Both the position numbers and the translations under genes were made by a program. The notes beneath the pieces were generated by a model, which saw only the letters and a program-made list of their open reading frames with translations, was not told the DNA's origin and did not search any database. A stretch of 64,000 nt of DNA from Spirochaetia bacterium (GTDB lineage: Bacteria > Spirochaetota > Spirochaetia > DSM-16054 > Sediminispirochaetaceae), in contig JAXHMY010000008.1 of the NCBI GenBank assembly GCA_034520965.1, positions 205,005-269,004 of the forward strand, read 5' to 3'. Shown piece after piece: positions 23,620 to 60,484 of the stretch; positions within the stretch are counted from its first letter, which is position 1, and each line of letters begins with the position of its first letter.

Positions 23620-23632
23620 TTTGGTTTGATAT

Positions 23633-23808
23633 CAGCAATTCGCAATTTGAAAAATTTTGGAAATTTTTCAAATTGCGAATGCTTACATTTTGTTACGGCG
23701 TTTCAAAAATTTTTTGATTTTTGAAATCGCCTGAAGTAGTTTATCTTAAAGATATTGTGGGTATTCTCATTTTGGAAGTCCTAAGACTTCCAAAATGAGA
23801 ATTTCCTG
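23633..23808. mobile_element. Family B palindromic MITE-like element (three hairpins) flanked by 9-bp direct repeat GTTTGATAT
   Basis: Starts CAGCAATTC, ends GAATTTCCTG; perfect 20-bp IR 23638-23680, imperfect IR 23697-23731, perfect 18-bp IR 23763-23802; DR at 23624-23632 and 23809-23817. Confidence 0.75.
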
Positions 23809-23810
23809 GT

Positions 23811-23839
23811 TTGATATAAGGTTGGTTTTGCGGTACACT
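23811..23839 (+). promoter_or_regulatory. Sigma70-like promoter of FecR-domain gene
   Basis: TTGATA N17 TACACT; AAGGAG SD and ATG 23870 downstream. Confidence 0.6.
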
Positions 23840-23869
23840 TGTGAAAGTACAGATTAAAGGAGCCGAATA

Positions 23870-24892
23870 ATGCATGTGGCCGGTAGAACACTGAAAATAC
23901 GATTTTTGATAGCAGCCCTGTTGCTTTGTAGTGCTTTGATGCCCTTGTGGAGCCAGGCTTCTTCCGGTGCAGGGGCTATCGCGGGCAGTTTAATTTATGC
24001 ATCCGGTACCAGTTTCGAAGTTGTTCGGGAGGGGAAATCGGTCGAGTACGACCTTGCCTCCGACACTGTTGAGGGGCTGGAGTTTTATCCGGGAGATTAT
24101 ATAAACACCTACAAGGGTACTTTTTTAGAAATTCAGGTGGCAGGATCCAAAAATGTGCTCAAGATAGCTGAAAATACCAGTTTTATAATTGATGAAACCT
24201 CCGAACCGGACTCCTCCCGCTACAAAGTCTCCTATGGCCGGGTTCGGGCCAGGGTTAAAAAATTAGCAGGCTTATCACAGTTTGCAATAACAGGACCGAG
24301 TATGGTCGCAGGGGTACGGGGAACCGATTTTGGATATGATGTACTTTACAGTCCCGAAAAAGAGACCACGGTTGCCTCTGTGTACTGCTTTGAAGGGCAG
24401 GTGGAAGTTAAGCCTACTGTACAAATTGTTACCGAAGAGGAGAATATTGAACTCGCTGCGAATGAGATGATTTCGATCAGCGAAATAAGTGCGGGTACGG
24501 AACCTCGTTATGCCTTTCAAAGGGAGGCCCTTTCATTGGAAATAAAGACTTTCTGGAATCAGCACGATTTTCAGGCTACTCCCATTGAAGTTTCCCCTGC
24601 CGGCACAATTCCAACAGAGACCGAGGCTCCGTCAGGAACTGAAGACGAAGGCAAAGAGCCGCCTCCCGGGGCTCAGTTTAAGTTTACCCAGTCACAGCTG
24701 AGGCGAGGGTCGCTCTTGACCGCCGGTATAGGAGCCGTTTTCGGTGCAGCAGCACTCACCTTTGCCTATGCCGATCCCCTCGTTGGAGATATGAATCGGG
24801 ATGTGCGTGATAATTTAGCTCTGTCCATGAGCATTTCCAGTGGGCTCTTTCTCAGTACCTCCGTATTTACCTTTATTGCATCGCTGTTTTAA
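23870..24892 (+). CDS. Exported FecR-domain protein with C-terminal membrane anchor
   Basis: Signal peptide; KIAENTSF, YGRVRA, VAGVRGTDF, FEGQVEV FecR-like motifs; C-terminal hydrophobic helices. Confidence 0.75.
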   Translation: MHVAGRTLKIRFLIAALLLCSALMPLWSQASSGAGAIAGSLIYASGTSFEVVREGKSVEYDLASDTVEGLEFYPGDYINTYKGTFLEIQVAGSKNVLKIAENTSFIIDETSEPDSSRYKVSYGRVRARVKKLAGLSQFAITGPSMVAGVRGTDFGYDVLYSPEKETTVASVYCFEGQVEVKPTVQIVTEEENIELAANEMISISEISAGTEPRYAFQREALSLEIKTFWNQHDFQATPIEVSPAGTIPTETEAPSGTEDEGKEPPPGAQFKFTQSQLRRGSLLTAGIGAVFGAAALTFAYADPLVGDMNRDVRDNLALSMSISSGLFLSTSVFTFIASLF

Positions 24893-26429
24893 AGTCGTAC
24901 GGTTCATAGTGCGTACGCTCAATACGGTCTATCTTCCAGCCCTTGGATGTCTCGTTCATGCTCACCATTTCTCTTACCCGAAAAGCCTGTACTTCACCGG
25001 TGGAGGCGATTGCTGCCATTTCTTCTTCTGAAGTAAGCTCTTCAGCTTTAGGAGGCAGGGTCGACCATTGGATGAAAGAAACTTCGAACCGGTGGTTCTT
25101 GGCGGTGGGGTTTATTTTAAGATCAGAGACACCAAAGACAAAACTGCTGTCCTTCAATTCAGGCCTTCCGGCTGCAATCCACTCCGGGGCTGGAGTAAAT
25201 ACATCTTTCATCTCGATTCCCTGACGCACCCTTGAAATTACAAAGAGAGTCGTGACTTGGTTTATATACGCTTTTCCGGTTGAACTACTGGTACACTGAT
25301 TCATGGCCTCATGATCCAGGCTGTTTTGGCTTAGGTAAAAGAGTTCAATTACTTCTGTGGGAGCAAGACCTTCGGTAATATCAGGTTCAAACGCTTTTTT
25401 CACAAAGGGGGTCGCAAAAAAGGCCAGCACTATCAGAGCTGCTGCAGTTATAAAAACAGTAGAGCCGTGGTTTTTCTTGAAATTACGCCTTTTTTCTCTT
25501 TTACGTACAGCCTGTTCCGCCGCATCGGCATTTTTCCGGCGTTCTTCGGCCTGCTCCAGATGGATATTCTCAAAAATCGTATTGTCCCGCCAGGCGGAAA
25601 TTTCGTCTGCAAACTCCAAAATCTTAGCGGCTAGAGGCGAGCTATCTGCAGATTGGGAGCTTGAAGCCCGTGCGCCTCTGGTCCGCGAAGCAGAAGATCG
25701 AGCAGAAGATCGACCAGTAACTATCCTGTTATTCACTGTTTTGAATAGAAAATCAGCAATTCGTGGATTCAGTTGGGGCAGCTGTGAGTGTAGATGCAAT
25801 GCTGTCTGAGAACCCTGGGTGCTTCCGTCACTGTGAGGCGCGGCTTGACTGTAGCCATTGTTGCTGCTTTGAAGCAGTTGAAGCTGCAGGTGATGTGCCA
25901 ACACCGGTAAAATCTCTTGCTGCCCCCCTATAGCTCCTGTCTCTTCCCTTTCCGGTGTTGCGATCAGCTGCTCATAATTTTGCTGGGTGAGCTGGGCAAT
26001 TTGCGGATGAAGAAAGTAGAAGTTCCCGCTTTCATCATAGAAGCTCGCCGAAAGATACAGCGCATCGGCATCAAGCTGCTCACGACTTGCAAGGGCCTTG
26101 AGAGCCCGTAGATAACGCTCGAGCATACGAAGGGTCCCTTCTATCTTCATGTGGAACACATCGCTTATGGGACGCAGCTCCGGGGAGGTATCGGAGAAGG
26201 TCAGATAGAGCCATTTTTGGTGCTCCATGGTAGAGTTCCATTGCCAGGGGGAGATATCCTTTTCAGACACGTACCAGCCGCTTAAGTTCTGAGGATTTCG
26301 AATCGTTTTGTGAAGACCTGAATGGGCAGGTGCGATTCTAATACCGGTGTATGTATGCTCTCCACTGCTCAGGGATGTGACCAGGGGTGGAGAAATTTCC
26401 TTTGATCGAACTAGTGATGATGCCTGCAT
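24873..26429 (-). CDS. Hypothetical single-pass membrane protein
   Basis: 518-aa ORF; basic cluster then TM (TVFITAAALIVLAFF) and periplasmic C-terminal domain; 4 nt after amrA stop. Confidence 0.7.
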   Translation of the reverse strand: MQASSLVRSKEISPPLVTSLSSGEHTYTGIRIAPAHSGLHKTIRNPQNLSGWYVSEKDISPWQWNSTMEHQKWLYLTFSDTSPELRPISDVFHMKIEGTLRMLERYLRALKALASREQLDADALYLSASFYDESGNFYFLHPQIAQLTQQNYEQLIATPEREETGAIGGQQEILPVLAHHLQLQLLQSSNNGYSQAAPHSDGSTQGSQTALHLHSQLPQLNPRIADFLFKTVNNRIVTGRSSARSSASRTRGARASSSQSADSSPLAAKILEFADEISAWRDNTIFENIHLEQAEERRKNADAAEQAVRKREKRRNFKKNHGSTVFITAAALIVLAFFATPFVKKAFEPDITEGLAPTEVIELFYLSQNSLDHEAMNQCTSSSTGKAYINQVTTLFVISRVRQGIEMKDVFTPAPEWIAAGRPELKDSSFVFGVSDLKINPTAKNHRFEVSFIQWSTLPPKAEELTSEEEMAAIASTGEVQAFRVREMVSMNETSKGWKIDRIERTHYEPYDFKTAMQ

Positions 26430-26433
26430 ATAA

Positions 26434-26988
26434 TTATTGCTCCTTTTCTCCGAATACTATGGCAGTGAACAGATACAACTCGACCTGCGGGTTGGTCCAG
26501 CAGTCGCCTGGAAGACCTGCTTTTAGGCAGAGGTTGCTTAAATATTGTCGGCGGTTCCAGCCCTGTTCTAGTGGTACTTGCGGCAGTAATACTCCCGAAC
26601 GGGCTCCGGTTTTAATATAGACCCCGTGTACTCCCACTTCAACCTGTTCGGCCGATTCAGCCCGTTCAAGAGGGGTGAGCACGGAGATCTCTATATCCAC
26701 CGCATCTAATTCAGATAGGTTCAGGGGTGGAAAACGGGGGTCTTCAAATGCACTTGCCCGGGCCAACTCTTTCACCGCTTCGAACAGCGGCTTAGTGGCG
26801 ATTATATGACCGATACAGCCCCGCAGCTTATCTCCACTATGCAGGGTGACGAAGGCACCGCAGTCCTGCTGCAGGTTTTCATTTGCTTCGGGGTATTGCG
26901 GAGGCTCCCCGGTAAGTGCTCCGCGGATGCTCTCGCGGGCTGTCTTTAGCAAAATTGATTTTTCCTGAGAAGAAAGGGTAAATTTCAT
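26434..26988 (-). CDS. amrA: AMMECR1-domain protein (AmmeMemoRadiSam protein A)
   Basis: GAFVTL, LRGCIG, DPRFPPL, EISVLT, GVLLPQV, LCLKAGL. Confidence 0.93.
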   Translation of the reverse strand: MKFTLSSQEKSILLKTARESIRGALTGEPPQYPEANENLQQDCGAFVTLHSGDKLRGCIGHIIATKPLFEAVKELARASAFEDPRFPPLNLSELDAVDIEISVLTPLERAESAEQVEVGVHGVYIKTGARSGVLLPQVPLEQGWNRRQYLSNLCLKAGLPGDCWTNPQVELYLFTAIVFGEKEQ

Positions 26989-27881
26989 AATTCCTCCCTG
27001 TCAGTGTGTGTCTTTATAGGGGTATAACCGGCAAAACTTCCGTACCATACCTCTCTCTGCTCCGGCTGTATGATTCCTGAGCGTCCCACCTCTAAATTGA
27101 GGTAAGTAAGGCTCCCGTGGAACAGCTCCTGTACCAGCTGAAGCCCACCCCGGCCGCAGGCTGTAATTTGGCGTGACGCCAAAAAGTCAGGCGAGTTCTT
27201 CCCAAGTTCAGAGAGAAAACTCTGGGCTTGTTTCTGGGCATTCACTGAATCGGTAAAATTGCTGAGATTAGAACTGATGACAAAAAGGGTATGTGGGTCG
27301 TTAGTCAGCCGCAACTGTCCTAAAGCATGTGCAGTGTGCTGTATGAGCTCCCGTGAGTTTTGACCCAGCAGCAGCGGCAGAATAGTAGCCTTGGCTGCGG
27401 TCTGAGCAAGCATGGGCAGGAGTATCTCCTGGGAGTGCTCCTCTGCAAAGGGAATATTATTTATCTGAAAAGGGCTTCCGCCGTCGGAAAAACTGCCGTT
27501 GGAACTGTCATTAAGGCGGCGAATCAGCTGGGTATCCACTGGGAAATCGGCGAGGGGGCATCGGAATGCATCGAAACCCGGAAGCCACACCCGCTGCTCA
27601 AAATCCCGGTGCACTGTAGATACAAGTACTATCCGCTCAATAGCCCCGGCCTGAGATACAAGACGAAAGGCCCGGGCAAGGTAGCTTCCTATATGTTGAT
27701 ATGAGGCATGGGGTACAAGCAAAACCCGCAGTTGCTGGTCCGGTGGGGGACTTATCTGGTTGTCCTCTTCTGCAGATACCCTTTCCAGCAGATCCTGCAC
27801 TAGACGTGCAAGTTCATCCGCATCTTCCGGATAAAATATACCGCTTACAATTGGAGCACGAAGCTTTGATCCAGTTTCCAT
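26985..27881 (-). CDS. amrB: MEMO1-family protein (AmmeMemoRadiSam protein B), divergent active site
   Basis: RAPIVSGIFYP, PHASY, EEHSQE, SSNLSNF, ACG; start ATG 27881. Confidence 0.8.
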   Translation of the reverse strand: METGSKLRAPIVSGIFYPEDADELARLVQDLLERVSAEEDNQISPPPDQQLRVLLVPHASYQHIGSYLARAFRLVSQAGAIERIVLVSTVHRDFEQRVWLPGFDAFRCPLADFPVDTQLIRRLNDSSNGSFSDGGSPFQINNIPFAEEHSQEILLPMLAQTAAKATILPLLLGQNSRELIQHTAHALGQLRLTNDPHTLFVISSNLSNFTDSVNAQKQAQSFLSELGKNSPDFLASRQITACGRGGLQLVQELFHGSLTYLNLEVGRSGIIQPEQREVWYGSFAGYTPIKTHTDREEL

Positions 27882-27939
27882 AGCTGTATTATCTCGCACT
27901 TGGTCCACTCTTGCAATCCATGATGAGCTATTGCTCGTA

Positions 27940-29376
27940 TTAGCTGCCGAGTAGTCGCTGAATACGTTCCTCATCGAGTTCTATTGAGATGTTTTTTTCT
28001 TGTGTTGGAATGACCAGTCCTTGGGGCCCCTCTTTTGCCCGTCGCAGGTATTTAACCTGGGTGTAATAAAGTTCAGCCTTACCTCCGGTTCTTCCCTTAG
28101 AGTAATGCAAAGCTAAATTGCCGGCATCCAGCAGGGTCTCCAGGGGAACCGATTTACCGGAGATGTATTTTATAAAGACATATCCCCCGGGATAGTCACG
28201 GGTGTGCAGCCAGTAATCATTGCCCCGCACATAATGGCGGAGAAGTGCGTCGTTTTCCTTAGCGGTTCGCCCTACAAGAATTGTGAACTGTCCGGACTGA
28301 AAGCGCAAGCCCGGTGCGGCAGTGCCGGTTTTTTCCCCTTTTTTAGGACTGTACTGGGAAATAAATTCCTTTAGTGCCTGTAGCTGCTCTTCAGGGCCTT
28401 CGATTGCATCTATTTGTTTAGCCTGCTGCTGCAGTTGCCGTTTACTCTGTTTGAGGTTGGCTAGTTCCTCTGTAAGATGCTCTCTCTGGCGTTTTGCTTT
28501 TCTGTATTTGTTGTAATAGGCTTCACCGTTCTGCTGTGGGCTGAGGGTGGGATCCAACTCAATCTCGGTGGGGGCGTTTTCATGATAAAAATCATCCAAG
28601 CGCACCCATTTACTTCCCGGCTGAATTAAATGCAGATTGGCCATTATAAGATCTCCGGTCTGCTTCAAGCCCTCCAGCTCCTCATTGTCATAGGATTTTC
28701 GCTGCAGCTCGGCGAGTTTAGAATCGATATTAGCTATCTGTTTTTCATGCAGCGTCTCCGCCCGCTCTCTAAGGCTGCCTAACTCTTGTTCTATCTCGCG
28801 ATTGAAATACTCCTGCTCAATGAACTGATTGAAGCTCATTGAGGTCGGGTTTTCACGGGGGATAAACTTCTTGGGGGGAGTATCACCTGTGGTTTTGGCT
28901 TTGGCGGTTGCGATCAGCTCTTGGGGGTTAAAGTACTCTCCCGAGATTTCGTGGCGCTTGGGGCGACGGTAAAATGCGTCAAGGATGATATTGCTGCTGT
29001 CGGTGGCGATAATATTTGCAGCCCCTCCCCACAGCCGAATATACAGCAGCGTCGTTTCTCCTCCGCGGCTAATCTCCAATCGTACTATCCGCTCGCCGCC
29101 TATCTGTTCTGCAATGCGAATCTTCCCTCCCTTGATGCGCGAGCGCAGGAACTGGGCAAAACGCTGCAGGGGAACTTGATTTTTGAACGAACGGGTGAGG
29201 CGATGGAGACGGGTTTTCCCCTGGGCCAGAGATATGAACAGACTTTGTCGATTCCCGGGCGCGTAGAGGTCGAGCACGAGGGTCTTAAAATCGGGTTGAC
29301 GGATTTTCTGGATAGAGCTGTTTTCTAAGTGAAGCTCCTCCAGAATCAGGTCGATCTCTCTCCAGTTTAATGACAC
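27940..29376 (-). CDS. NFACT/RqcH (FbpA-like) ribosome quality-control family protein
   Basis: ERIVRL, ANII, coiled coil with YYNKYRKAK, NFACT-R VGRTAKENDAL and WLHTRDYPG. Confidence 0.88.
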   Translation of the reverse strand: MSLNWREIDLILEELHLENSSIQKIRQPDFKTLVLDLYAPGNRQSLFISLAQGKTRLHRLTRSFKNQVPLQRFAQFLRSRIKGGKIRIAEQIGGERIVRLEISRGGETTLLYIRLWGGAANIIATDSSNIILDAFYRRPKRHEISGEYFNPQELIATAKAKTTGDTPPKKFIPRENPTSMSFNQFIEQEYFNREIEQELGSLRERAETLHEKQIANIDSKLAELQRKSYDNEELEGLKQTGDLIMANLHLIQPGSKWVRLDDFYHENAPTEIELDPTLSPQQNGEAYYNKYRKAKRQREHLTEELANLKQSKRQLQQQAKQIDAIEGPEEQLQALKEFISQYSPKKGEKTGTAAPGLRFQSGQFTILVGRTAKENDALLRHYVRGNDYWLHTRDYPGGYVFIKYISGKSVPLETLLDAGNLALHYSKGRTGGKAELYYTQVKYLRRAKEGPQGLVIPTQEKNISIELDEERIQRLLGS

Positions 29377-29379
29377 AGG

Positions 29380-29931
29380 CTACTCCAGGTTGTGGGTTTG
29401 CAATGTCTCAAGAAATACCTGCTCGTCATCGCTGCTGAAAAAGACCAAATACACCTCCCTGGGGAGGCTGTGACGGCTGAGAAACTTCTTTAGAGTCTGA
29501 AATACAATAGTGGCGGCCTTTGATTTCGGAAAGCCGTATACTCCGGTACTGATAGCCGGAAAGGCGACTGTTTTTAATCCCGTTTCAGCTGCAACTGAAA
29601 GGGAATTGGTATACGCTGCTTCAAGCTCTTGTTCTTCATCCTGGCTACCCCCGTGCCATACCGGGCCGACAGTGTGGATTACATGGGAGGAGGGAAGTTT
29701 TCCCGCATTAGTAATCACTGCTTTGCCGGTTGGAAGCCCTTCCGGATACTGATGTTGACGGATTTCCTTGCACTCCCGTAGAATTGCATCCCCTCCACGA
29801 CGGTGGATGGCTCCATCAACACCACCGCCACCCATCAAACTGGAGTTGGCTGCATTTACAATAGCATCAACTTCAATTGAGGTAATATCTCCGGTTTGAA
29901 CAATCACACGATCCTGCAGCAGCTTTTTCAT
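29380..29931 (-). CDS. Macro-domain O-acetyl-ADP-ribose deacetylase (YmdB-like)
   Basis: GDIT, AIVNAANSSLMGGGGVDGAIH, VIHTVGP, FPAISTGVYGFP. Confidence 0.93.
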   Translation of the reverse strand: MKKLLQDRVIVQTGDITSIEVDAIVNAANSSLMGGGGVDGAIHRRGGDAILRECKEIRQHQYPEGLPTGKAVITNAGKLPSSHVIHTVGPVWHGGSQDEEQELEAAYTNSLSVAAETGLKTVAFPAISTGVYGFPKSKAATIVFQTLKKFLSRHSLPREVYLVFFSSDDEQVFLETLQTHNLE

Positions 29932-29941
29932 AAGATTCCTC

Positions 29942-29973
29942 CTATTAAGAAAATAGCCGAATACGGCTATTTT
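29942..29973 (+). repeat. Family A repeat, partial copy (first hairpin only, loop inverted)
   Basis: CTATTAAGAAAATAGCCG-AATA-CGGCTATTTT; contains hisC stop codon. Confidence 0.8.
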
Positions 29974-33736: not shown

Positions 33737-33761
33737 TTAGTAGCTATGTAGTAGTAAAAAT

Positions 33762-33790
33762 ACTGTAGTATACCAACCCAAGACAGTCAA
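33762..33790 (-). promoter_or_regulatory. Sigma70-like promoter of hisD-folC-hisC operon
   Basis: Minus strand TTGACT (33790-85) N17 TACAGT (33767-62). Confidence 0.6.
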
Positions 33791-33798
33791 TGTAAGTA

Positions 33799-33936
33799 CA
33801 GCTCATTTTGGATAGTGTAAATTACACTATCCAAAATGAGAATGCCTCCAAACGTTGAGATATATAAAAATTTGCAAAGAAATTGATGCGAATTCTAAAT
33901 TTGGAAGTCAAAAGACTTCCAAATTTAGAATCGCTG
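33799..33936. mobile_element. Family B palindromic MITE-like element (two hairpins) flanked by 9-bp direct repeat ATGTAAGTA
   Basis: Starts CAGC, ends GAATCGCTG; perfect 19-bp IR 33802-33840, perfect 18-bp IR 33892-33931; DR at 33790-33798 and 33937-33945. Confidence 0.75.
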
Positions 33937-34044
33937 ATGTAAGTAGTACTAGTTTTATTACCACGCTTCGAACCATCTGCAACTGCAGCCGGTTTTGAAG
34001 TTGAAACCCTTGAAAAAAGGGCTGATTTTGCCGAGTATTTTGGA

Positions 34045-34837: not shown

Positions 34838-34887
34838 CAGGAATTCTCATTTTGGAAGACTTTTGACTTCCAAAATGAGAATCACTG
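34838..34887. mobile_element. Family B minimal element (single hairpin), no flanking direct repeat
   Basis: CAGGA-ATTCTCATTTTGGAAGAC-TTTT-GACTTCCAAAATGAGAAT-CACTG; arms near-identical to 23763-23802. Confidence 0.7.
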
Positions 34888-36680: not shown

Positions 36681-37938
36681 TTTTTTTTCTATTAAGAAAA
36701 TAGCCGTATTGGGCTATTTTCGTCGTTTCGATTGCCGCGGAGCGTCATACGAAACTGTTAAAGCGGTCCTTTCGGCCTTACAAAGGAAGGGCGCCGCTGT
36801 TCTTTTTGTTATTCTGTGCATACTTGTGCCGGCCGGAAAGGGCTGGGCCGAGTATCTGCAGTTTGGAGAGGACCTGTTTGTGAACTTGCCGGCCAGCTGG
36901 CAGGTTCAGGGAATTGAAGAGAACAAGTTTTCGGCGGTGAACCAAGCAGAGGAAGCGTATTTTCTGCTTAAACAGCATGCGGGCGGACAGTTTCAGGATG
37001 TCAACCAGATGCATTCTACGGTTGCCGCCGAACTTGGCGCCCGGGTATATGCCGGCAGCAGCTACAGCCATTCCGGGATGGATGCCCACCTCTCACAGGT
37101 GGAGTTCCAGCAACAGGACCGTCGGTTCCAAGGATATTTACTCTGTATTGAATCCCACCGGATCGATGTGGTGGTAGTGGGGTTTGCTCTAAAGGGTAAA
37201 CTTTCCGCTTATCAGGATACCCTTTTCTCGGCGATGGATTCGCTGGCTGTCGGAGACCGCGGTCTGGTCGAGCCGGGACCTATCAGTCAATCGGTATCAC
37301 CCTATCCGGCTCAGGATGTTGAACGCTTTACAATTCAATTTGAGGGCCGTGAGGTTCCACTGGCCTTAAGTAATGCAGCTATTGATGCGACTCAGGATGT
37401 AATTGAACGGGAAGCGAGGGTTTTGTCGGTATACGGGGGAACCGAATATGCAGAAGCCGCCTGGAAACGGTATTACCGGCTTGTGTATCGCGACTTGTTT
37501 GTCCGAAGTCGTCCCCTCTATTCGGCACTGCAGACCTACCTCCCGCCACAGGATCACAGCCCCGAGGAGATTGCCGCCGCCCTGTTAGCATGGGTGCAGG
37601 GGTTTCAGTATGAGCGGCTGGAAAGCTTGTCCGACTGTTTATCCCCCTTACGGGCGGCGGTGGAGAGCCGCGGCGACTGTGATTCCCGGGGGCTGCTGTA
37701 CACGATACTCCTGCACCACTATCAGATTGATGCAATTTTGATGGTATCCTCGGTGTACAAACACAGCATGGCTGCGGTTGCAGTAGACGGTGAGGGAGCT
37801 CGTTTCACTCTCAATGAAAAACGTTATCTGGTTGCCGAGACAACCGACCAGGTTGAGCTTGGATTAATCGACCAAGCCATGTCCAACACCAATGCATGGA
37901 TTGGCATTGATTTCATTAACCCTCGTATAACAGATTAG
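36673..37938 (+). CDS. Exported protein with C-terminal transglutaminase-like (Cys-His) domain
   Basis: Signal h-region AAVLFVILCILV...GWA; GDCDSRGLL, HSMAAV, ETT motifs; GTG start overlaps upstream stop. Confidence 0.7.
   Translation: MSSFFSIKKIAVLGYFRRFDCRGASYETVKAVLSALQRKGAAVLFVILCILVPAGKGWAEYLQFGEDLFVNLPASWQVQGIEENKFSAVNQAEEAYFLLKQHAGGQFQDVNQMHSTVAAELGARVYAGSSYSHSGMDAHLSQVEFQQQDRRFQGYLLCIESHRIDVVVVGFALKGKLSAYQDTLFSAMDSLAVGDRGLVEPGPISQSVSPYPAQDVERFTIQFEGREVPLALSNAAIDATQDVIEREARVLSVYGGTEYAEAAWKRYYRLVYRDLFVRSRPLYSALQTYLPPQDHSPEEIAAALLAWVQGFQYERLESLSDCLSPLRAAVESRGDCDSRGLLYTILLHHYQIDAILMVSSVYKHSMAAVAVDGEGARFTLNEKRYLVAETTDQVELGLIDQAMSNTNAWIGIDFINPRITD
36689..36756 (+). repeat. Family A 68-nt repeat, copy 2 (inside coding frame)
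   Basis: CTATTAAGAAAATAGCCGTATTGGGCTATTTTCGTCGTTTCGATTGCCGCGGAGCGTCATACGAAACT. Confidence 0.92.
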
Positions 37939-37962: not shown

Positions 37963-39168
37963 ATGGGCCTGTTAAGCAGAATCCTGGAAGATGAAAAACT
38001 CGCCTTTGAAAATCCGCCCCTTCCGAGTTTAAAAGTTGGAGAAGGAGTTCTTTTTTCAGTTCCCGAGTATCTTCACCAGCAGGGTTTTTCCCGGGTAGCT
38101 CTCATAACCGGGGGGGATTCATATTCTACCGCTGGGTATCGGGAGCAGTTTGAAGAACAACTGAGGGCTGCCGGGATAGAAGCCCCCCGTTTTCCGGTCT
38201 CCGGGGAGCCCTCGCCAATAAAGGTGGACCAGATACGTGATACCGCCGCCGAGCTTCAGGTTGATGCGCTGCTCGCTGTGGGGGGAGGAAGCGTGATCGA
38301 TACTGCCAAGGCGGTAGCCGTCATGCTCCACCATCAGGGAAATGTGCGGGAATACCTGGAGGGAGTGGGAAATCGTACACCGAAACCCCTGCGTCATCCA
38401 TTGATCGCGGTGCCTGCGACCTCCGGCACCGGCTCGGAAGCGACTAAAAATGCGGTTATCAGCGAAGTAGGGGAACAGGGCTTCAAGAAGTCCCTGCGCA
38501 ACGACGCCTATGTGCCGGACATGGCCCTGCTCGATCCGCTGGTAATCAAGAGTTGTCCCTATGATGTGACGGCCGCATCGGGAATGGATGCGATAACCCA
38601 GCTCTTAGAGGCGTATGTGTCCACAAAAGCAACTCCCTTTACCGATGCTCTGGCGTTAAATGGATTGCAGCGCAGCCGCTGGTCGCTCCCGGCTTCCCTC
38701 CGGGATGGGGAAAACTTAAACGCCCGTGGCCAAATGGCCTATGCCGCTTATTTATCCGGAGCTGCCCTGGCGGGAGCCGGCCTGGGGGTGGTTCACGGAT
38801 TAGCCTCTCCCCTGGGAGCACTTCGAAACATACCCCATGGGGTGGTGTGCGGTACCCTGCTTCCGGCGGCTATCGAGCTAGTGGTGGCTAGGTTGTTGAA
38901 AAGCGATACCGAGAGCCGGGGTCTTGCAAAGTACTCCCAAGCGGCAATGGTATTTACCGGGAGTGATCACGGAAGTGCTGAGCACAACTGCCGAGCCCTG
39001 GTGGATGAGCTCTACAGCTGGGTTGAAGAGTTCTCCCTGCCCGTGCTCTCCGATTACGGGTTTACTACTACAGAGTTACGAGACATTGCCGACAGCAGCT
39101 CGGTGAAGGGAACTCCAGTCGAACTTACCCCGGATGAGATATATTCGATTTTAACCCGTCGGCTGTAG
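37963..39168 (+). CDS. Iron-containing alcohol dehydrogenase
   Basis: GGGSVIDTAKA, TSGTGSEATKNAVI, DAITQLLE, HGLA, HGVVC. Confidence 0.93.
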   Translation: MGLLSRILEDEKLAFENPPLPSLKVGEGVLFSVPEYLHQQGFSRVALITGGDSYSTAGYREQFEEQLRAAGIEAPRFPVSGEPSPIKVDQIRDTAAELQVDALLAVGGGSVIDTAKAVAVMLHHQGNVREYLEGVGNRTPKPLRHPLIAVPATSGTGSEATKNAVISEVGEQGFKKSLRNDAYVPDMALLDPLVIKSCPYDVTAASGMDAITQLLEAYVSTKATPFTDALALNGLQRSRWSLPASLRDGENLNARGQMAYAAYLSGAALAGAGLGVVHGLASPLGALRNIPHGVVCGTLLPAAIELVVARLLKSDTESRGLAKYSQAAMVFTGSDHGSAEHNCRALVDELYSWVEEFSLPVLSDYGFTTTELRDIADSSSVKGTPVELTPDEIYSILTRRL

Positions 39169-39181
39169 TTTGATGTCGGTA

Positions 39182-39234
39182 AGTTAGAAGCCTTTTAGTT
39201 AGAAGCTTTTTAGTTAGAAGCTTTTTAGTTAGAA
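39182..39234. repeat. Tandem repeat, 15-bp unit AGTTAGAAGCTTTTT x3.5
   Basis: Units at 39182, 39197, 39212, partial 39227. Confidence 0.9.
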
Positions 39235-49619: not shown

Positions 49620-49649
49620 ATCTGACCATTTTTAGTGTAAGGAGGTAAT

Positions 49650-50201: not shown

Positions 50202-50244
50202 AAAAACCTGAGCTTCCAGAAATGTATGAAAGCCGGCAAAAAGC

Positions 50245-50274
50245 TCTGTAAGGCCCTTAAGAGGGCCTTACAGA
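50245..50274. terminator. Hairpin between convergent DJ-1 and ackA genes
   Basis: 13-bp perfect stem TCTGTAAGGCCCT-TAAG-AGGGCCTTACAGA. Confidence 0.65.
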
Positions 50275-50282
50275 ATAACAAC

Positions 50283-51620: not shown

Positions 51621-51647
51621 TGCATTCCTCCAATAGTTTTGAATAAT

Positions 51648-51715
51648 AGTTTCGTATGCCGCGTAGCGGCAATCGAAACGATGAAAATAGCCGAATACGG
51701 CTATTTTCTTAATAG
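51648..51715 (-). repeat. Family A 68-nt repeat, copy 3 (probable 5' UTR of ackA)
   Basis: Reverse complement CTATTAAGAAAATAGCCGTATTCGGCTATTTTCATCGTTTCGATTGCCGCTACGCGGCATACGAAACT. Confidence 0.92.
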
Positions 51716-51862
51716 TTTTTACAGCATATTTTCGCATGGCTCCCGCAAAAATTCAATAAACAAAGGGGAAACCGAATATTGTGCTATGTTAAGCCAATTT
51801 CACTCCATAAAAGATAGCTATTATTGAAGCAGGGCGACATAAATCAATGTTGTTACTAGTAT

Positions 51863-53281: not shown

Positions 53282-53295
53282 ACTTCAGCCGCAGC

Positions 53296-54642
53296 TCAAA
53301 TACTCAGCAGATATCGGGCGGTCTCAAAATAGATGGTGAGTCCGCAAACATCAATGACCGTTGCCATTAAAGGGGTGGACATAACCGTCGGATCAAAGCC
53401 CAGGCGATGGATAAAGAGCGGCATGAGAGTCCCGATAAGATTTGAAATAAGAACAACAAATACTAAGGACAGCCCCAGCGCCAAGCCTTCAAAGGTTCCG
53501 ACTCCCGGGGGCATCAAGATGCTGCGTGCGATAATAACCAAGCCGGTAAACAATCCCATCATCAGACCAACCAGAATCTCCCGCAGAAAAATTATGCCGG
53601 TCTGCCTAAAGTGTATTTCCCCGGTTGCCAATCCGCGGATCATAAGGGTTGCGGATTGGCTGCCTGTATTACCTCCGGTTTGGGTAATAACCGGCATAAA
53701 CACAAACAGAAAGGCTGCGCTAAGAGCTAACTCTTCATAGTGATAGACCACATTGGTGGTTATGGTTCCAAAGAGGAGGAGGATGATAAGCCAGGGTACC
53801 CGCTTTTTAACTAAGCCCCACATTGAGGTGTCCATGTAGGAGCCAACCTCACCGGACATAGCACCCATCTTATAGACATCCTCAGTTTGCTCCTCCCGAA
53901 TGACATCGATTACATCGTCGAAGGTAACAACACCAAGCAGCAGGTTGTCATGGTCTACAACCGGAATAGAAATCAGGTCATGTTCTTCCAGGGTACGGGC
54001 TACCTCTTCTCTGTCGGTCTCATCAAACACGGAAACTACTTTTCGTTCCATGATCTCGGAAACCGAAAGAGTATCTTCGGATGAGAGTATATCCTTGATA
54101 GATACCGTTCCTATGAGGCGCTGAAGGTCATCGAGTACGTAGATGTAATACGGAATTTCAACTTTTTTTACATTATTGCGAATAAAGCCCAGGGCCTGAG
54201 AAACACTTATACTGGCGCGAATCGCAAGGTAACGCGGGGTCATCATACCGGCTGCATCATCTTCATCGAAACGCAGCAGAAAGAGCATCTCCCGTTTGGC
54301 TTCGTCGCTCAGGTTGTCCCAGACTGAGCGGCGCACTTCATGGCTGAGGGTTTGGACAAGGTCTACCAGGTCATCCGGTTCCATCGCCTGAAAGAGTGCT
54401 CTTTTCCCTTGGGAGGAGAGTGATTCTATGATTATCTCCTGCTCTTGATAGGGCAGCTCGATAATCAGATCTAGTTTTTTGCTGGGGTCCAGATGCAGAA
54501 AAATTTCGGTTTTTTCTTCTTCAGTTAATTCACGCCAATCGTTGACTAAGTCACTTACTGCAATCTCTGAAAACAGTGATCGCATTTCATTGCCTGTCAT
54601 CATCTCTCGGTAAGACCGATAATAATCGATATAGCTGCTCAT
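53296..54642 (-). CDS. mgtE: Magnesium transporter MgtE
   Basis: MgtE N-domain, AAGMMT CBS pair, GGNTGSQ, IRGLATGE, DPTVMSTPLMATVID. Confidence 0.95.
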   Translation of the reverse strand: MSSYIDYYRSYREMMTGNEMRSLFSEIAVSDLVNDWRELTEEEKTEIFLHLDPSKKLDLIIELPYQEQEIIIESLSSQGKRALFQAMEPDDLVDLVQTLSHEVRRSVWDNLSDEAKREMLFLLRFDEDDAAGMMTPRYLAIRASISVSQALGFIRNNVKKVEIPYYIYVLDDLQRLIGTVSIKDILSSEDTLSVSEIMERKVVSVFDETDREEVARTLEEHDLISIPVVDHDNLLLGVVTFDDVIDVIREEQTEDVYKMGAMSGEVGSYMDTSMWGLVKKRVPWLIILLLFGTITTNVVYHYEELALSAAFLFVFMPVITQTGGNTGSQSATLMIRGLATGEIHFRQTGIIFLREILVGLMMGLFTGLVIIARSILMPPGVGTFEGLALGLSLVFVVLISNLIGTLMPLFIHRLGFDPTVMSTPLMATVIDVCGLTIYFETARYLLSI

Positions 54643-54708
54643 AGGGTGACCTCGCTTTTCCACATTGGGTGTTATCGTTAAGTTTATTTTATCCGGTACG
54701 GCAGCTGT

Positions 54709-55623
54709 TTACCAGTCTCCAACCAGCCGAATCTCCGGTTCCAGCACGATATTTCGTTTTTCATATGCAACCTTCTGGGCGTGAAGAATGAGGCCCCTCA
54801 CATCCTCAGCCGAGGCTGTGCCGTTGTTGATGATAATATTAGCATGGAAGGGTGCTATTTGTGCTCCCCCCCGTCGGAACCCCCGCAGGCCTAACTCATC
54901 AAGAATTTTTCCGCTCGGCATACCAAAGCTGCGATTGTTCTTAAATACGGAACCGGCGGAAGGATGTTCAAAGTGTCCTTTACTACGGCGGTCTTCTTGA
55001 ACCTCCTGCATACGGGCCCATATTGCTGCGTAATCGGCTGTCTGCAGCCTCAAGTCAAGTGACAACAGAATAGCGCTACTGCCCTGGAAGGGGGACTTTT
55101 TATAGGCAAAGCGGGGGTCCGGAAGGGTGAGGTTCTGATGTGAAAGTGCGTCATCCAGGTAGTGTACAGTTCCCGGCACCTCCGAGATCGACTGCCCGTA
55201 ACAACGGGCATTCATCCAAAGGGCTCCGCCGACACTGCCCGGCATTTTGTAGATAAATTCTAATCCGCTTAGGGAGTGTTGGGCGGCAATCTCAGCGACA
55301 TGGCTGATTTCTGCTCCCGTTCCACAGTGCAATTGCTGTCCTTTTACCTCTATACCTGCAAACCGAGACATATCCAGCACCATCCCCCGCATGCCCTTAT
55401 CCGAGACCAAAATATTGGCCCCTGCCCCGAGGACAAACAGAGGCACTCCTTCGCTGTGTGCTACTCCGGCGATCAGTACAATATCGGCTTCATCCGCGGG
55501 GACGGTATAAATATCTGCCGGGCCGCCGATCTGAAAAGAGGTGTGCCGGTTCATAGGTTCATGAAGTTTGACCTGACCGCTTATGTTGATTTTTTTTACT
55601 ATATCTCCTACATTTATATCCAC
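54709..55623 (-). CDS. murB: UDP-N-acetylenolpyruvoylglucosamine reductase
   Basis: HTSFQIGGPAD, GAGANILVSD, PGSVGGALWMNA, PSAGSVFKN, LEPE. Confidence 0.95.
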   Translation of the reverse strand: MDINVGDIVKKINISGQVKLHEPMNRHTSFQIGGPADIYTVPADEADIVLIAGVAHSEGVPLFVLGAGANILVSDKGMRGMVLDMSRFAGIEVKGQQLHCGTGAEISHVAEIAAQHSLSGLEFIYKMPGSVGGALWMNARCYGQSISEVPGTVHYLDDALSHQNLTLPDPRFAYKKSPFQGSSAILLSLDLRLQTADYAAIWARMQEVQEDRRSKGHFEHPSAGSVFKNNRSFGMPSGKILDELGLRGFRRGGAQIAPFHANIIINNGTASAEDVRGLILHAQKVAYEKRNIVLEPEIRLVGDW

Positions 55624-55688
55624 GCGGATTATAATAAGTGAAAATGGCCGGATTTTCTACCGCTTATTCCAATTTTAGGGGGCTTTGT

Positions 55689-57098
55689 ATGCAACTTCGT
55701 TTATACAATACCATGGCAAGGAAAATTGAAGATTTTTATACTATCGAACCGGGTAAGGCGAAGATGTATACCTGCGGCCCAACCGTCTATAATTATGCCC
55801 ATATCGGGAATCTAAGAACCTACGTGTCTGAAGACCTCCTGCGCCGTACGCTGGAGTATGTAGGGTATGAAGTTGAACATGTAATGAATGTTACTGATGT
55901 AGGCCACCTGACGGATGACGCGGATGAGGGAGAAGATAAGATGGTAAAGAGCTCCCGTGAATCCGGCCGTTCCGTATGGGATATTGCTCAGTTCTATACG
56001 GATGCCTTCTTCCTGGATATCGATAATTTGAATATACGTCGTCCTTCCATTACCTGTAAGGCCACCGATCATATCGGGGATATGGTTGGGCTGATTAAGA
56101 AAATTGAACAGAACGGTCATACCTATGAGTCCGGGGGCAATGTCTATTTCAGCATAGATACTTTTCCGGAGTACGGAAAATTGGCCCGTCTTGACACTCA
56201 GGACTTGCAGTCGGGAGCCCGGATAGCGGTGGACAGTAATAAAAAGAATCCCCGTGATTTTGTGCTGTGGTTCACCCGCTCGAAATTTGAAAATCAGGCA
56301 ATGATTTGGGATTCTCCGTGGGGAAAGGGATACCCCGGCTGGCATGTGGAATGCTCAGCTATGAGTATGCGTTATTTAGGTGAGCATTTTGATATTCATT
56401 GCGGCGGGGTCGACCACATTCCTGTGCATCATACCAACGAAATTGCCCAATCCGAAAGCGCAACGGGAAAAAAATGGGTGAACTTCTGGATTCACGCTGA
56501 GTTCCTTGTCATGGGGCAGCATAAAATGGCTAAGTCGAAGGGAAACTTTATTACCCTGCGAACCCTTCAGGAGGAGAAGTACGATCCTCTAGATTACCGC
56601 TACTTTTGCTTGGGCGGGCATTACCGCTCACAGTTGCAGTTTACCTTTGACTCATTGGATGCAGCCAGAACAGCACGGCTCAATTTAGTAGACCGGGTTC
56701 GTGAATTGCGCGGTGAGGTCGATACAATACCGGAGCTCACGGATATCGGGAGTGAGGCGCGCAGATATCTGGAAGAGTTCCAGACGCAGGTGACCAATGA
56801 TCTGCATGTGCCCAAAGCCTTATCGGTCCTCTGGCCCTTACTTAAAGACAGTGCTGTACCGGCTGGGGAAAAACTGGCGGTAGTATTGGATATGGACAAG
56901 GTGCTTGGCTTGCAGCTCGCCTCAGTGGAAGAAGAAGCCTCACTTGATGATGAGACACACAAGCTTATCAAAGAGCGGGAAGAGGCCCGGGCAGCTAAGG
57001 ACTTTGCGCGGGCCGATCAAATCCGTGATCAATTGCTTGAGAAAGGGATTGAGCTCAAGGATACTCCAAAAGGGACGGTATGGAAGAAAAAAGTGTAA
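55689..57098 (+). CDS. cysS: Cysteine--tRNA ligase
   Basis: CGPTVYNYAHIGN, PGWHVECSAM, HHTNEIAQ, KMAKS. Confidence 0.98.
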   Translation: MQLRLYNTMARKIEDFYTIEPGKAKMYTCGPTVYNYAHIGNLRTYVSEDLLRRTLEYVGYEVEHVMNVTDVGHLTDDADEGEDKMVKSSRESGRSVWDIAQFYTDAFFLDIDNLNIRRPSITCKATDHIGDMVGLIKKIEQNGHTYESGGNVYFSIDTFPEYGKLARLDTQDLQSGARIAVDSNKKNPRDFVLWFTRSKFENQAMIWDSPWGKGYPGWHVECSAMSMRYLGEHFDIHCGGVDHIPVHHTNEIAQSESATGKKWVNFWIHAEFLVMGQHKMAKSKGNFITLRTLQEEKYDPLDYRYFCLGGHYRSQLQFTFDSLDAARTARLNLVDRVRELRGEVDTIPELTDIGSEARRYLEEFQTQVTNDLHVPKALSVLWPLLKDSAVPAGEKLAVVLDMDKVLGLQLASVEEEASLDDETHKLIKEREEARAAKDFARADQIRDQLLEKGIELKDTPKGTVWKKKV

Positions 57099-57125
57099 CT
57101 ATCGGATATAAGTGTTGTTTACAGT

Positions 57126-57653
57126 ATGAAGATACACAGTAATGACCCGGAAGCATTTCAAGGTATATACGATAAGACGTTTCATATAATCGTCAAGGTT
57201 GCATATCATATAACCCTGGATGCTGACGTGGCAGAGGACATTTGCCAGGAGGCGTTTATCCGTTTTTATCATCGGACCGTTCCTTTTCCCTCGGAGGACC
57301 AAGCTCGATATTGGCTGATTCGTGTAGCGAAGAACCTCTCTTTTAACTACTACAAACGAAAAAAGCGGGAGAGATCAGCTCTTGAACGTTATTCCTTCGA
57401 ACCCAAACCGCATCAGCACAATAGCGAAGAGCTGTTGATGCGCAGTGAGACTGAACAGCTCGTACACCATGCGGTAGAGCAGCTTCCCGATAGTCTTCGT
57501 TCGGTTATTGTATTGAAGGAGTATGGAAATCTTTCTTATCGCGAAATAGGGAGGGTTCTTCACATTACGGAAAACAATGTAAAGGTAAGGGTACATCGAG
57601 CCCGGAACATGCTGGGCACTCTCCTGAAGGAGGAGGAAGCACATGTGTTATGA
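57126..57653 (+). CDS. ECF (group 4) RNA polymerase sigma factor
   Basis: AEDICQEAF, WLIRVAKN (region 2); LSYREIG...NVKVRVHRAR (region 4). Confidence 0.93.
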   Translation: MKIHSNDPEAFQGIYDKTFHIIVKVAYHITLDADVAEDICQEAFIRFYHRTVPFPSEDQARYWLIRVAKNLSFNYYKRKKRERSALERYSFEPKPHQHNSEELLMRSETEQLVHHAVEQLPDSLRSVIVLKEYGNLSYREIGRVLHITENNVKVRVHRARNMLGTLLKEEEAHVL

Positions 57654-58245
57654 TGAACAAGTTATTTCTACGTATGTAGACGGTGAATTAGAAGAACCTC
57701 TTCACCGCGAGGTACAGAAGCATCTGGAAAGCTGTGCCTACTGCCGTAGTACACAGGCTGAGTACCGCTCTGTAAAAGAGCTCTTTTTGGCTGTGAGTAA
57801 CAGCCCACTACACGATACCATTGCCGGGCCACAGGCAAAGGCGAGGGTATGGCAGCAGGTTCAGCGGAAGACCCGACGTGAGACAGCTCAGAACTTTTGG
57901 CATCGGCAAATTCAGGTCCCCCTTCCCCTGGCTGCGGGCGTAATGGCGGCAGTGGCGGTACTCGTCTTTACTTTGATTTTTAGTCCCTTTTCTTCCGGTA
58001 TTTTTTCTTCTGATCAATCCGGTGCCCCCCTTGCTTTACGAGATGATAACAATATCCCGGAGGTATCTACAAACTATCCTGCTTCCAAAAACAGCATGCC
58101 GGAACTTGAACAGCTGCTTCGGTTTTTGAGTGATCAAGGGGCGGCGGTGGAAGTGAAGATTCAGCTCCCAAGCTCTTCCAAAATTCAGGTGACCGGAGAG
58201 CCCCAACTGCTGCGGGCGGCGGATTTCAGGAGGAGCGGCGAGTGA
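57643..58245 (+). CDS. Zinc-binding (ZAS) transmembrane anti-sigma factor
   Basis: YVDGEL...HLESCAYC (HxxxCxxC), single TM; overlaps sigma stop, AGGAGG SD. Confidence 0.88.
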   Translation: MCYDEQVISTYVDGELEEPLHREVQKHLESCAYCRSTQAEYRSVKELFLAVSNSPLHDTIAGPQAKARVWQQVQRKTRRETAQNFWHRQIQVPLPLAAGVMAAVAVLVFTLIFSPFSSGIFSSDQSGAPLALRDDNNIPEVSTNYPASKNSMPELEQLLRFLSDQGAAVEVKIQLPSSSKIQVTGEPQLLRAADFRRSGE

Positions 58246-58739
58246 AATTGAATGCCCTTTTTCCAATGCTGCTGATCTTATTGGGGCTGGTGCAGCCCCT
58301 TTTTTCACAGAACCATAGTGGTGCTTCAAGTGAAGAACTCGAAGAGGCGTTACGCTATTTGCAGGGTAAAGCTCTGGAAGTACAGATCCATGCGCGTTTA
58401 ATTGGAAAAGATCGGGAAAATGTCTGGAACACCGAAAGTCGAAAAATAACCGTGTCCGGCAAATCGATTTCGATCACCCTTCAAGGTGAGAACTTAGTTG
58501 TCAGTGCTCATATTCTTCCGTTTTTAAACGAAGGCGGTTCAATTTTTCTTGTTGCCAAGGGAGAGGTATGGGTTCAACAGGGTCCTGGTCAAGAGAAAAA
58601 GTATTACAGTACTGTAAAAAGCCTTCCCATCAAACCGGGAGAAAGTGTAATATTCTTTCCAACCGGAGTGCTTATGGATACAGAAGAGAACGACGTACAT
58701 ACCATCGAATTAGAAATACAAGTGGAGCCGCTTGAATGA
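58242..58739 (+). CDS. Hypothetical exported protein in ECF operon
   Basis: Signal peptide; GTGA and ATGA overlaps with neighbours. Confidence 0.7.
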   Translation: MKLNALFPMLLILLGLVQPLFSQNHSGASSEELEEALRYLQGKALEVQIHARLIGKDRENVWNTESRKITVSGKSISITLQGENLVVSAHILPFLNEGGSIFLVAKGEVWVQQGPGQEKKYYSTVKSLPIKPGESVIFFPTGVLMDTEENDVHTIELEIQVEPLE

Positions 58740-60385
58740 GCGCTCGTGGACATATATATACCATCTCAGTATTCTTACTTTTTATTCTTTTAGTTGCTGT
58801 AGCCATCTATTTGTCGGTTTTTACGGTAAAGAAGCCTCACATCACCAAGCTCTCTCCACCGGCAGCCTATCCACAGGAGACCCTGCATATTGAGGGCGAA
58901 GGATTCGGCCCTAAGCGAGAAAACGGAGACGTTATTATTGCCGGAATTCGCCTTACTGCTTCGCATCTTGAAGAGTGGACGGAAAATGAAATCCGGGTAA
59001 GGGTTCCCCAGGGAGTAGAATCCGGGCGGGTGTATGTAATCACTCAGAACGGTGAAAGTAATGGAATCCTGTTCAGTAATAGGGCTCATATACCGGTAAT
59101 TCTCTCCGGCCCGGTAGAACCGGGACATCCCTATATCGAATCGATCTCCCCTGAAAAAGGGGCTGTCGGTACCCGGGTTACAATAAGTGGTCGTAATTTC
59201 GGTCGACGACGGGGTGCAGGGAAGGTATATTTCCGTTTTTTAGCGGTGGACAAAACGGCCGGATCCGAGAATTCTTCAGGAAATATGGAATATGTAGAGT
59301 GCAGTGAATTTGATTTTGACTATGAGCTGTGGAGTGACCAGGAGCTGGTGGTGTATGTTCCGGACGGGGCAATTTCCGGGAGTGTTATGGTTGAAAACGA
59401 CCGTGGACGAAGTAACGCCCTCTATTTCGAGGTAAATACCCCGGCGGGGTCTAAACGCTTTGAACAGAAAAAGGGGTATCAGATTCAGCAGGATCTTCGT
59501 GTGTCAAATGTGCGAGCGGCGAACGAGGAGAGTGGACTTGAGCTCTGGGTTCCGAAACTGTTCCACGGCTACGCTCAACAGAATATTGAAGCGATACACG
59601 ATCCTGAACCCTTATGGCTTGATTATAAGGGGATTATGCGTTATTCCCTTAAACCTTCAGAGGATTGGTTTGAATATTCTCTGAATCATACTTACTGGTT
59701 TGACCGCTACTCAATTCGCACCGATATTGATGCGCGAGATGTGGGTGGGTATGATCAGGATAGAAAGCTGTATACTCACTACACCCAACCGAATATGTTC
59801 ATTCCTTCGGACAACGAGACTATTGCGGCGGTGGCAGCCTCTCGGGCAGGGCGAAGTGGAAATCCGTATCGCCGGGCATATGCTCTGTTTGAATATATTC
59901 TCGATCGAATAGAGTACGATCCGGGGTTTCGCTACAATAGCTTAGAAGAGTGTATCGACAGCGGACGAGGGGATGCACGGGATTACGCTCTGTTGTTTGT
60001 TGCGATGGCCCGCAGTATCGGCATTCCGGCCCGTCCGGTGGCCGGCCTTATAGTGTATGGAGATAAGCTTACCCGGAGGCATGTGTGGGCGGAGTTTTAT
60101 GTCCCCCAGTTGGGTTGGGTTCCGGTCGACCCGGCACTGGCTGATGGTACCGGGCTCCTCGACATTCAGGTTGAAGCTCCCGGCTCTTTTTATTTTGGAA
60201 ATCTTGAGAATCAACACATCAGTTTTACCAGGCATGTGGTGCAGCTTCCGAAGGTGAATCCCCATTCAAAAGTGAGTATACTTCCCAACCCCTACTCCCT
60301 ACAGACTATTTATGAAGAATACCCGCCTAATTTAGAGGGGTATCGAGTCCGTTGGGAAGATGTAAAAATAGTCGATTGGTGGTAG
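58736..60385 (+). CDS. IPT/TIG-domain, transglutaminase-like protein (catalytic Cys absent)
   Basis: Two IPT/TIG repeats (PHITKLSP..GEGFG; PYIESISP..GRNFG); GDARDYA...GIPAR...HVWAE...WVPVDP. Confidence 0.85.
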   Translation: MSARGHIYTISVFLLFILLVAVAIYLSVFTVKKPHITKLSPPAAYPQETLHIEGEGFGPKRENGDVIIAGIRLTASHLEEWTENEIRVRVPQGVESGRVYVITQNGESNGILFSNRAHIPVILSGPVEPGHPYIESISPEKGAVGTRVTISGRNFGRRRGAGKVYFRFLAVDKTAGSENSSGNMEYVECSEFDFDYELWSDQELVVYVPDGAISGSVMVENDRGRSNALYFEVNTPAGSKRFEQKKGYQIQQDLRVSNVRAANEESGLELWVPKLFHGYAQQNIEAIHDPEPLWLDYKGIMRYSLKPSEDWFEYSLNHTYWFDRYSIRTDIDARDVGGYDQDRKLYTHYTQPNMFIPSDNETIAAVAASRAGRSGNPYRRAYALFEYILDRIEYDPGFRYNSLEECIDSGRGDARDYALLFVAMARSIGIPARPVAGLIVYGDKLTRRHVWAEFYVPQLGWVPVDPALADGTGLLDIQVEAPGSFYFGNLENQHISFTRHVVQLPKVNPHSKVSILPNPYSLQTIYEEYPPNLEGYRVRWEDVKIVDWW

Positions 60386-60410
60386 TAAGACATTTCTTTT
60401 GCATTGACAA

Positions 60411-60452
60411 CGGCAATTTGAAAATTTTATTACGGCGTTTCAAAAATTACTG
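60411..60452. mobile_element. Family B deletion derivative flanked by 9-bp direct repeat CATTGACAA
   Basis: CGGCAATTTGAAAATTTT and TTACGGCGTTTCAAAAATT match the left arms at 23642 and 23693; ends AATTACTG; DR 60402-60410 and 60453-60461. Confidence 0.7.
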
Positions 60453-60454
60453 CA

Positions 60455-60484
60455 TTGACAAAGGGCAAGAGCGACCCATATACT
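60455..60484 (+). promoter_or_regulatory. Sigma70-like promoter of Crp/Fnr gene
   Basis: TTGACA N18 TATACT; AGGTGGGG SD before ATG 60515. Confidence 0.6.

Follow-up and report, generated by a model that had tools for sequence, protein, structure and literature searches.

A family of short palindromic elements occurs in four copies in the 64,000-bp stretch of Spirochaetia DNA analyzed here (hereafter the window; C8:205005-269004 of a 3.35-Mb genome). With a probability of about 60%, these copies belong to a non-autonomous MITE (miniature inverted-repeat transposable element) family that inserts 17 bp upstream of σ70-type promoters and is moved in trans by a transposase of predicted Tn5-like fold, labeled ISNCY, that is positioned by promoter-bound RNA polymerase. 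Shared ends, target-site duplications, empty sites, an insertion sequence (IS) with matching ends and a fixed promoter spacing were all observed, the spacing not only in MITEs but also in full IS copies, and across several phyla.

Target choice can be read from the flanks of the elements. A profile search gave 242 hits, of which 184 could be bounded and 135 had 8 or 9 of 9 matching positions in the flanking repeat; these represent 116 distinct sites, 46 of them from this genome. A 60-bp flank was taken on each side, and flank positions are counted outward from the element end. The trinucleotide TTG is located at flank position 18 in 34/232 flanks (background 4.2), with counts of 2, 34, 19 and 3 at positions 17, 18, 19 and 20, and a -10 motif is located at positions 41-42 in 48/232 flanks (background 6.2). 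A full match to a σ70-type promoter at this spacing, with the -35 box 17 bp from the element, is found at 35/116 sites compared with 0-6 in seven shifted windows, and it occurs on either side of the element and never on both. In this genome, the match is present at 13/46 sites and at only 56/5000 random intergenic positions; thus, the spacing is not a mere consequence of intergenic bias. Of the assignable promoter calls, 15/17 have the gene facing away from the element, compared with 39/67 of the other flanks. The same TTG register is found in 19/152 non-spirochaete ends (background 3.1), in 10/39 ends of G211 and G358 (two of them possibly one site), and in 9/40 flanks (background 0.9) of full IS copies from Microcystis, a set of 20 copies chosen from 126 end matches in one genome. 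The Microcystis sp. BLCC-F210 chromosome (G403) contains 126 exact end matches, many of them full 1.87-1.97-kb IS copies, and this large expansion lends itself to a comparison of target choice with transcription-start data.

The 9-bp target is itself biased, with T at position 4 in 60/116 sites and A at position 6 in 53/116. A second register, in which the -35 box lies inside the duplication, is found in 14/232 flanks and is used by elements 1 and 4 of the window; the T4/A6 bias may partly explain it. Divergent gene pairs are favored as insertion sites (17/46 sites compared with 306/1463 intergenic regions).

The likely source of mobility is an IS that carries the same ends. In Nostoc mirabile, a complete 1886-bp IS has the end sequence of the MITE, a 9-bp repeat and a gene for a 444-amino-acid protein, and this protein matches 49/401 genomes of the class, including this genome at 47% identity. 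The homologous IS of this genome lies outside the window (C1:856108-857804; 1697 bp, exact 9-bp repeat). Its transposase, 95% identical to the intact P0012, contains one internal stop, and over positions 2-16 the left end of the IS is the same as in the C1:340805 MITE copy. In a genome of the same family (G016), the IS ends match a different MITE arm type. Judging from the shared ends and the duplication length, the MITE would be moved in trans by the transposase of such an IS; several related IS probably drove different MITE subfamilies, because the commonest MITE ends are unlike those of the C1:856108-857804 copy. Genome contigs scanned with a 20-letter end yielded at least 120 loci in cyanobacteria, Desulfobacterales, Chloroflexi, Verrucomicrobia and others, and many of the matches listed are 100-180-bp MITEs with 9-bp repeats.

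The transposase homologues bear the name "ISNCY family transposase" and form a family of at least 7,800 proteins in several phyla. Residues D128, D219 and E342 are invariant in 41/41 sequences, and a CxxC motif and His residues that follow the first Asp are likewise invariant. Weak matches are to the IS4, IS701 and IS1634 models (28/42 homologues weakly match IS4_2), with no Mutator-type model among them. A sequence search of solved structures returned nothing significant; the predicted model of the G288 homologue (predicted local distance difference test score 90) has Tn5 transposase as its best match (E 8.8e-9, TM-score 0.45) and also matches piggyBac (3e-6). Three other candidates for the autonomous partner were rejected: the IS1634 copies, which have CC ends and a 6-bp repeat; the ISKra4 copy, which has GGT ends and an 8-bp repeat; and a 1636-bp CAG...CTG interval with a 9-bp repeat at C2:70606, which is really a MITE with an IS110-family element inside. 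This IS110-family element has sub-terminal inverted repeats (IS1111 type) and is found at C2:70606-72241, C9:264427-266078 and C3:264241-265731, two copies at the identical base in a MITE outer arm and one in look-alike sequence. Its downstream non-coding region matches the left half of the target at 9/9 positions and the right half, on the other strand, at 7/8, arranged as would be expected of a guide RNA.

Within this genome, 38 CAG...CTG pairs have a spacing of 100-200 bp and an exact 9-mer repeat directly alongside; none of the other 63 trinucleotide pairs does so more than 7 times. For CAG...CTG pairs at 30-400 bp, repeats of 7, 8, 9, 10 and 11 bp number 57, 16, 42, 1 and 0. The genome-wide excess of 9-bp flanking repeats on which the sequence-only reading depended is therefore present. 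The end profile identifies 75 MITE loci (E<0.01), 57 of them with two hairpins, and 43/75 have an exact 9-bp repeat after boundaries were optimized; element 4 is too short for this profile. The standard MITE is ~142 bp long and consists of two ~50-bp hairpins and a ~40-bp spacer: an outer arm starting with CAG is followed by a loop of 2-5 bases, an inverted inner arm without CAG, the spacer, and then the mirror image. The ends begin with CAG in 104/116 left and 75/116 right ends, and with GAG in 40 right ends. Some 50-bp hairpins stand alone with an 8-9-bp duplication of their own (L039, L068, L182 and L184, and C2:201059-201109 in this genome); the one at L039 has GAG at both ends, which simple deletion from a parent would not yield. 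Matches to element 1 are found in 17/41 related genomes and in 12/16 within the family, the end pattern in 29/401 genomes of the class (control matches 0), and an identical hairpin end in a record labeled Spirochaetaceae. Copies in this genome are old (median nearest-neighbor identity 0.93), and the subfamily typical of G008 is young, with 25/27 copies at an identity of at least 0.98. In G304, the interior of a multi-copy element is missing from the assembly. A metagenome scan with the hairpin pattern returned 124 loci, none with an adjoining transposase, and a scan of viral contigs with the end pattern returned 14 matches, none of them paired.

Empty sites were sought by searching both flanks of the 116 sites separately in all the DNA retrieved. 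The 41 paired flank matches comprise 26 filled sites, 9 with a gap of exactly -9, as left by one target copy, and 6 with other gaps. In the window, the contigs compared come from related strains (4 of the 22 runs listed, at 85% likeness). The site of element 1 is empty in contigs of three other studies (X3, X4 and X12), in which 23612 is joined to 23809 with ten letters between, a junction that restores the single 9-mer. Element 2 is skipped in one contig of run X12, and element 3 is apparently absent in contigs of X3, X4 and X12, where the aligned sides are short. The empty orthologous sites with a single 9-mer that the sequence-only reading proposed to look for thus exist. So do IS that match in their ends and encode a DDE transposase, both here and in other genomes; together with the 9-bp repeats, these findings bear out the reading's proposal of a non-autonomous element family. 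The family is short, non-coding and multi-copy, with terminal inverted repeats shared with an IS, a duplication of fixed length and empty sites, which are the characters by which a MITE is recognized.

We infer that RNA polymerase guides the insertion, and this has to be weighed against other origins of the spacing. The transposase could itself recognize a word resembling TTG(A) at 17 bp from its cut and strike promoters because they contain that word. The bias of the duplication shows that some reading of sequence exists, and the Microcystis flanks have the TTG peak with little -10 signal (the motif at 41 in only 3/40). Even so, this explanation is unlikely: the correctly spaced -10 motif accompanies TTG in 33/53 flanks but only 4.4% of 27,611 intergenic TTG, and in flanks without TTG at 18-19 the -10 motif persists at 41-42 (20/179 compared with 3-10 in control positions), which favors recognition of a promoter complex over the reading of one word. 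Insertion could also be loosely intergenic, with the apparent spacing produced as selection purges copies that break promoters. The intergenic location of all window copies, the preference for divergent pairs and the existence of the position-3 register, which also leaves promoters whole, are in keeping with such purging. It is nevertheless quite improbable, since selection should leave a broad upstream plateau, whereas the TTG peak is 1-2 bp wide and falls at the same position in other phyla. An even less probable mover, and one largely refuted, is a Mutator-like ISKra4/ISLre2 transposase, for which promoter targeting would be an already known property. Published values of 13-17 bp for the spacing and 8-9 bp for the duplication agree with those seen here (PMC3942029), and this genome does contain an ISKra4-family element (C9:278661-280155), the transposase of which is split at an A run, as in programmed frameshifting. 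However, that element differs from the MITE in its GGT ends and 8-bp repeat, and the ends in the rows of Table S1 start with G (PMC3942029). Moreover, the MITE ends belong to IS copies coding for a Tn5-like protein; full copies of these IS peak at position 18 themselves, and a profile comparison of that protein with the ISKra4 protein showed no similarity (probability 0.3%).

Several observations weigh against polymerase-guided insertion by this transposase. The promoters are consensus matches and thus putative, and the copies are related, some sites possibly being shared by descent. About 70% of sites lack a strict promoter match at the fixed spacing, and none of the window copies is in the position-18 register: the -35 box lies inside the duplication in two, at position 9 in one, and is lacking in one. 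The IS copy in this genome has no match at position 18. Microcystis flanks pass the strict promoter test in 0/40 cases, and 7/20 of the IS copies there have no duplication. In this genome, only one full IS copy was found and it is broken; with this query, no transposase homologue was found in G008 (68% complete), the holder of the youngest burst.

The hairpins have a history of their own. Their stems are AT-rich, unlike typical intrinsic terminators. The two arms of a hairpin match at 14.5/15 positions, whereas the two true ends of an element match at only 11.2/15 (114 copies), and perfectly paired arms fall into 22 left and 8 right types. Distinct changes are found in both arms (53 and 24 times) and in one arm (24 and 19 times), as judged against nearest neighbors by spacer rather than by phylogeny, with subfamily differences counted in. 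The reverse complement of the loop is present for 14/25 right-loop types and 4/7 left-loop types (controls 4 and 8, and 0 and 0), and both loop orientations are found within a near-identical young subfamily (27:2 and 24:2), although misassembly of palindromes may have added some of the flips. Template switching is a process that yields both homogenization of arms and inversion of the spacer between them (PMC8604942, PMC5941160), and the paired arm changes and flipped loops suggest that it has acted here. It is possible, although doubtful, that the hairpins are instead kept by a selected function, such as a role in RNA processing, shielding of the promoter from read-through or provision of additional sites for transposase binding, and not by template switching alone. 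Among 22 unrelated MITEs of other phyla with the same end, the interior folds strongly in 15 (z below -3 relative to dinucleotide shuffles), and the inner arms lack the terminal CAG, as expected of sites used for binding only. On the other hand, loop inversions and both-arm changes in single copies fit template switching, the AT-rich stems are not those of a terminator, and the end is folded back on itself in 0/22 of these MITEs (best 11/15), so fold-back is not needed for mobility. Fold-back of the end looks lineage-specific as far as these sequences go.

Under polymerase-guided insertion, the transposase would bind each end over its outer ~17-20 bp and cut and paste the element in the manner of Tn5. 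The transposase complex would dock on the polymerase-promoter complex, so that the 9-bp target falls at about -52 to -44 and both promoter and gene stay intact. In this spirochaete lineage, the inner part of each end may have been duplicated in inverted orientation, the terminal CAG not included; template switching during replication would then keep the arms alike and flip the loop, and deletion between arms could give rise to solo hairpins and short remnants.

All four elements marked out by the sequence-only reading were found at their places in the window (Table 1), each of them intergenic, and exact 9-bp repeats flank three of them and not the fourth, as it had described. Its suggestion that two of the repeats extend to 11 bp through the terminal TG probably does not hold: these are most likely chance matches, because the family duplicates 9 bp and because TT, not TG, precedes the single 9-mer in element 1's empty allele.

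Table 1. Positions of the MITE copies in the window and of the duplications that flank them.
Feature	Position	Strand	Description
Element 1, left 9-bp target duplication	23624..23632	.	Single copy in the empty allele (runs X3, X4, X12)
Element 1	23633..23808	+	176-bp MITE variant with fold-back hairpins on the left and right and an extra hairpin between them
Element 1, right 9-bp duplication	23809..23817	.	-35-like hexamer at flank position 3
Element 2, left 9-bp duplication	33790..33798	.	
Element 2	33799..33936	+	138 bp; standard two-hairpin MITE minus 4 bases near the left end
Element 2, right 9-bp duplication	33937..33945	.	
Element 3	34838..34887	.	50-bp solo right-type hairpin with CAG...CTG ends and no duplication
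Element 4, left 9-bp duplication	60402..60410	.	
Element 4	60411..60452	+	42-bp deletion remnant of the longer variant represented by element 1
Element 4, right 9-bp duplication and putative promoter	60453..60484	+	Consensus match

Element 1 has miaA (22621-23619) on one side and a LipL45-like gene (23870-24892) on the other; in its right flank, a -10-like hexamer (23834-23839) lies 17 bp beyond the -35-like hexamer, and this putative promoter, called by consensus match, faces the downstream gene. Element 2 is flanked by divergent hisD and arginyltransferase genes, and element 3 starts 10 bp past the arginyltransferase stop codon. In the right duplication of element 4, a consensus -35 hexamer at flank position 3 is followed by an 18-bp spacer and a -10-like hexamer, facing a CRP/FNR-like gene. 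Window genes have weak matches to Leptospira-type lipoprotein models, and no Rfam match was found anywhere in the window.

Other repeats are found in the same genome. A ~40-bp hairpin family (C1:428615, C1:668262, C1:954788, C3:127279 and C8:88959) resembles the additional hairpin inside the 175-bp MITE variant. An unrelated ~70-bp family with two GC-richer hairpins and no obvious duplication occurs in the window at 5230-5298, 29942-29973, 36689-36756 and 51644-51715; it has 43 pattern matches in the genome, both strands counted, and one copy on C3 carries an inserted MITE. Two multi-copy elements of ~1.3 kb (C1:650394-651685 and C2:308426-309720; 9 and 4 similar copies) have long terminal inverted repeats and open frames of ~385 amino acids. 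Tandem 15-bp units are located at 39166-39225 of the window, after a gene ending at 39168.

In its widest form, the proposal is that a widespread, unclassified Tn5-fold transposase family independently evolved docking on promoter-bound RNA polymerase and so places elements 17 bp upstream of housekeeping promoters, where the spirochaete MITEs add self-repairing hairpins; the odds of this wider claim appear to us to be even. If true, transposition guided by the transcription machinery would have arisen a second time in bacteria, by convergence, and this would suggest that low-damage insertion is a strategy reached by convergent evolution. The proposal of polymerase contact would become testable in a second fold, that of an unrelated single-protein transposase with ~17-bp ends and the same register, and the unclassified IS family would gain a defining property. 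Such a transposase might be used to insert DNA just upstream of promoters or to map active promoters, and the MITE would offer a clean natural record of palindrome repair.

The family has counterparts among known MITEs. Nezha, Chunjie, Correia and RUP elements are likewise short, non-coding and intergenic, with terminal inverted repeats shared with an IS, a duplication and empty and filled sites, and Chunjie also has 9-bp repeats; fold-back of the end and fixed promoter spacing are not mentioned in the descriptions of these elements available to us (PMC3184786, PMC10969869), and Nezha and Chunjie were compared by description. REP and IS200-type hairpin elements differ in making no target duplication, whereas this family has the 9-bp duplication and the -9 empty sites. 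ISNCY-labeled IS (e.g., WP_013335080.1 and WP_234711115.1) share the ~440-amino-acid transposase family (47-55% identity), the end sequence and the 9-bp duplication, although the MITE has no gene and the IS ends have no fold-back hairpin; this partner may belong to the ISMae2 group of ISfinder, which has CAG ends and 9-bp repeats. The IS4 family (IS50/Tn5) provides the best structural match to the partner, a Tn5-like DDE fold in the predicted model, and Tn5 makes a 9-bp target duplication as well; by sequence, the partner falls far below the family cut-off (21 against 152 bits) at 14% identity, and its invariant CxxC and His residues set it apart as well.

The closest likeness in target choice is to TnGBS, ISLre2 and ISKra4 (p-MULT 3 and 4), which insert 13-17 bp upstream of housekeeping -35 boxes with an 8-9-bp duplication, in both orientations in some members and, for ISKra4, in part of the family (PMC3942029). 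The spacing and duplication of the present family fall within both ranges. In the parts of that work available to us, the authors regard such targeting as atypical among prokaryotic elements and propose contact with the polymerase by analogy with yeast Ty3 (PMC3942029). Their transposases are Mutator-like and their published ends start with G, whereas the transposase described here has a predicted Tn5-like fold with no detectable similarity to them and ends that start with C. No published target specificity or promoter targeting was found for this end or for the ISNCY family, although a description may exist in ISfinder, in reviews behind subscription or in the papers on Nezha and Chunjie. In the literature searched, fixed-distance promoter targeting has previously been described only for ISLre2, TnGBS and ISKra4, and because the transposase shows no similarity to the Mutator-like ones, its occurrence in a Tn5-like family is likely convergent. 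As a MITE, the family is ordinary; the targeting is its unusual property.

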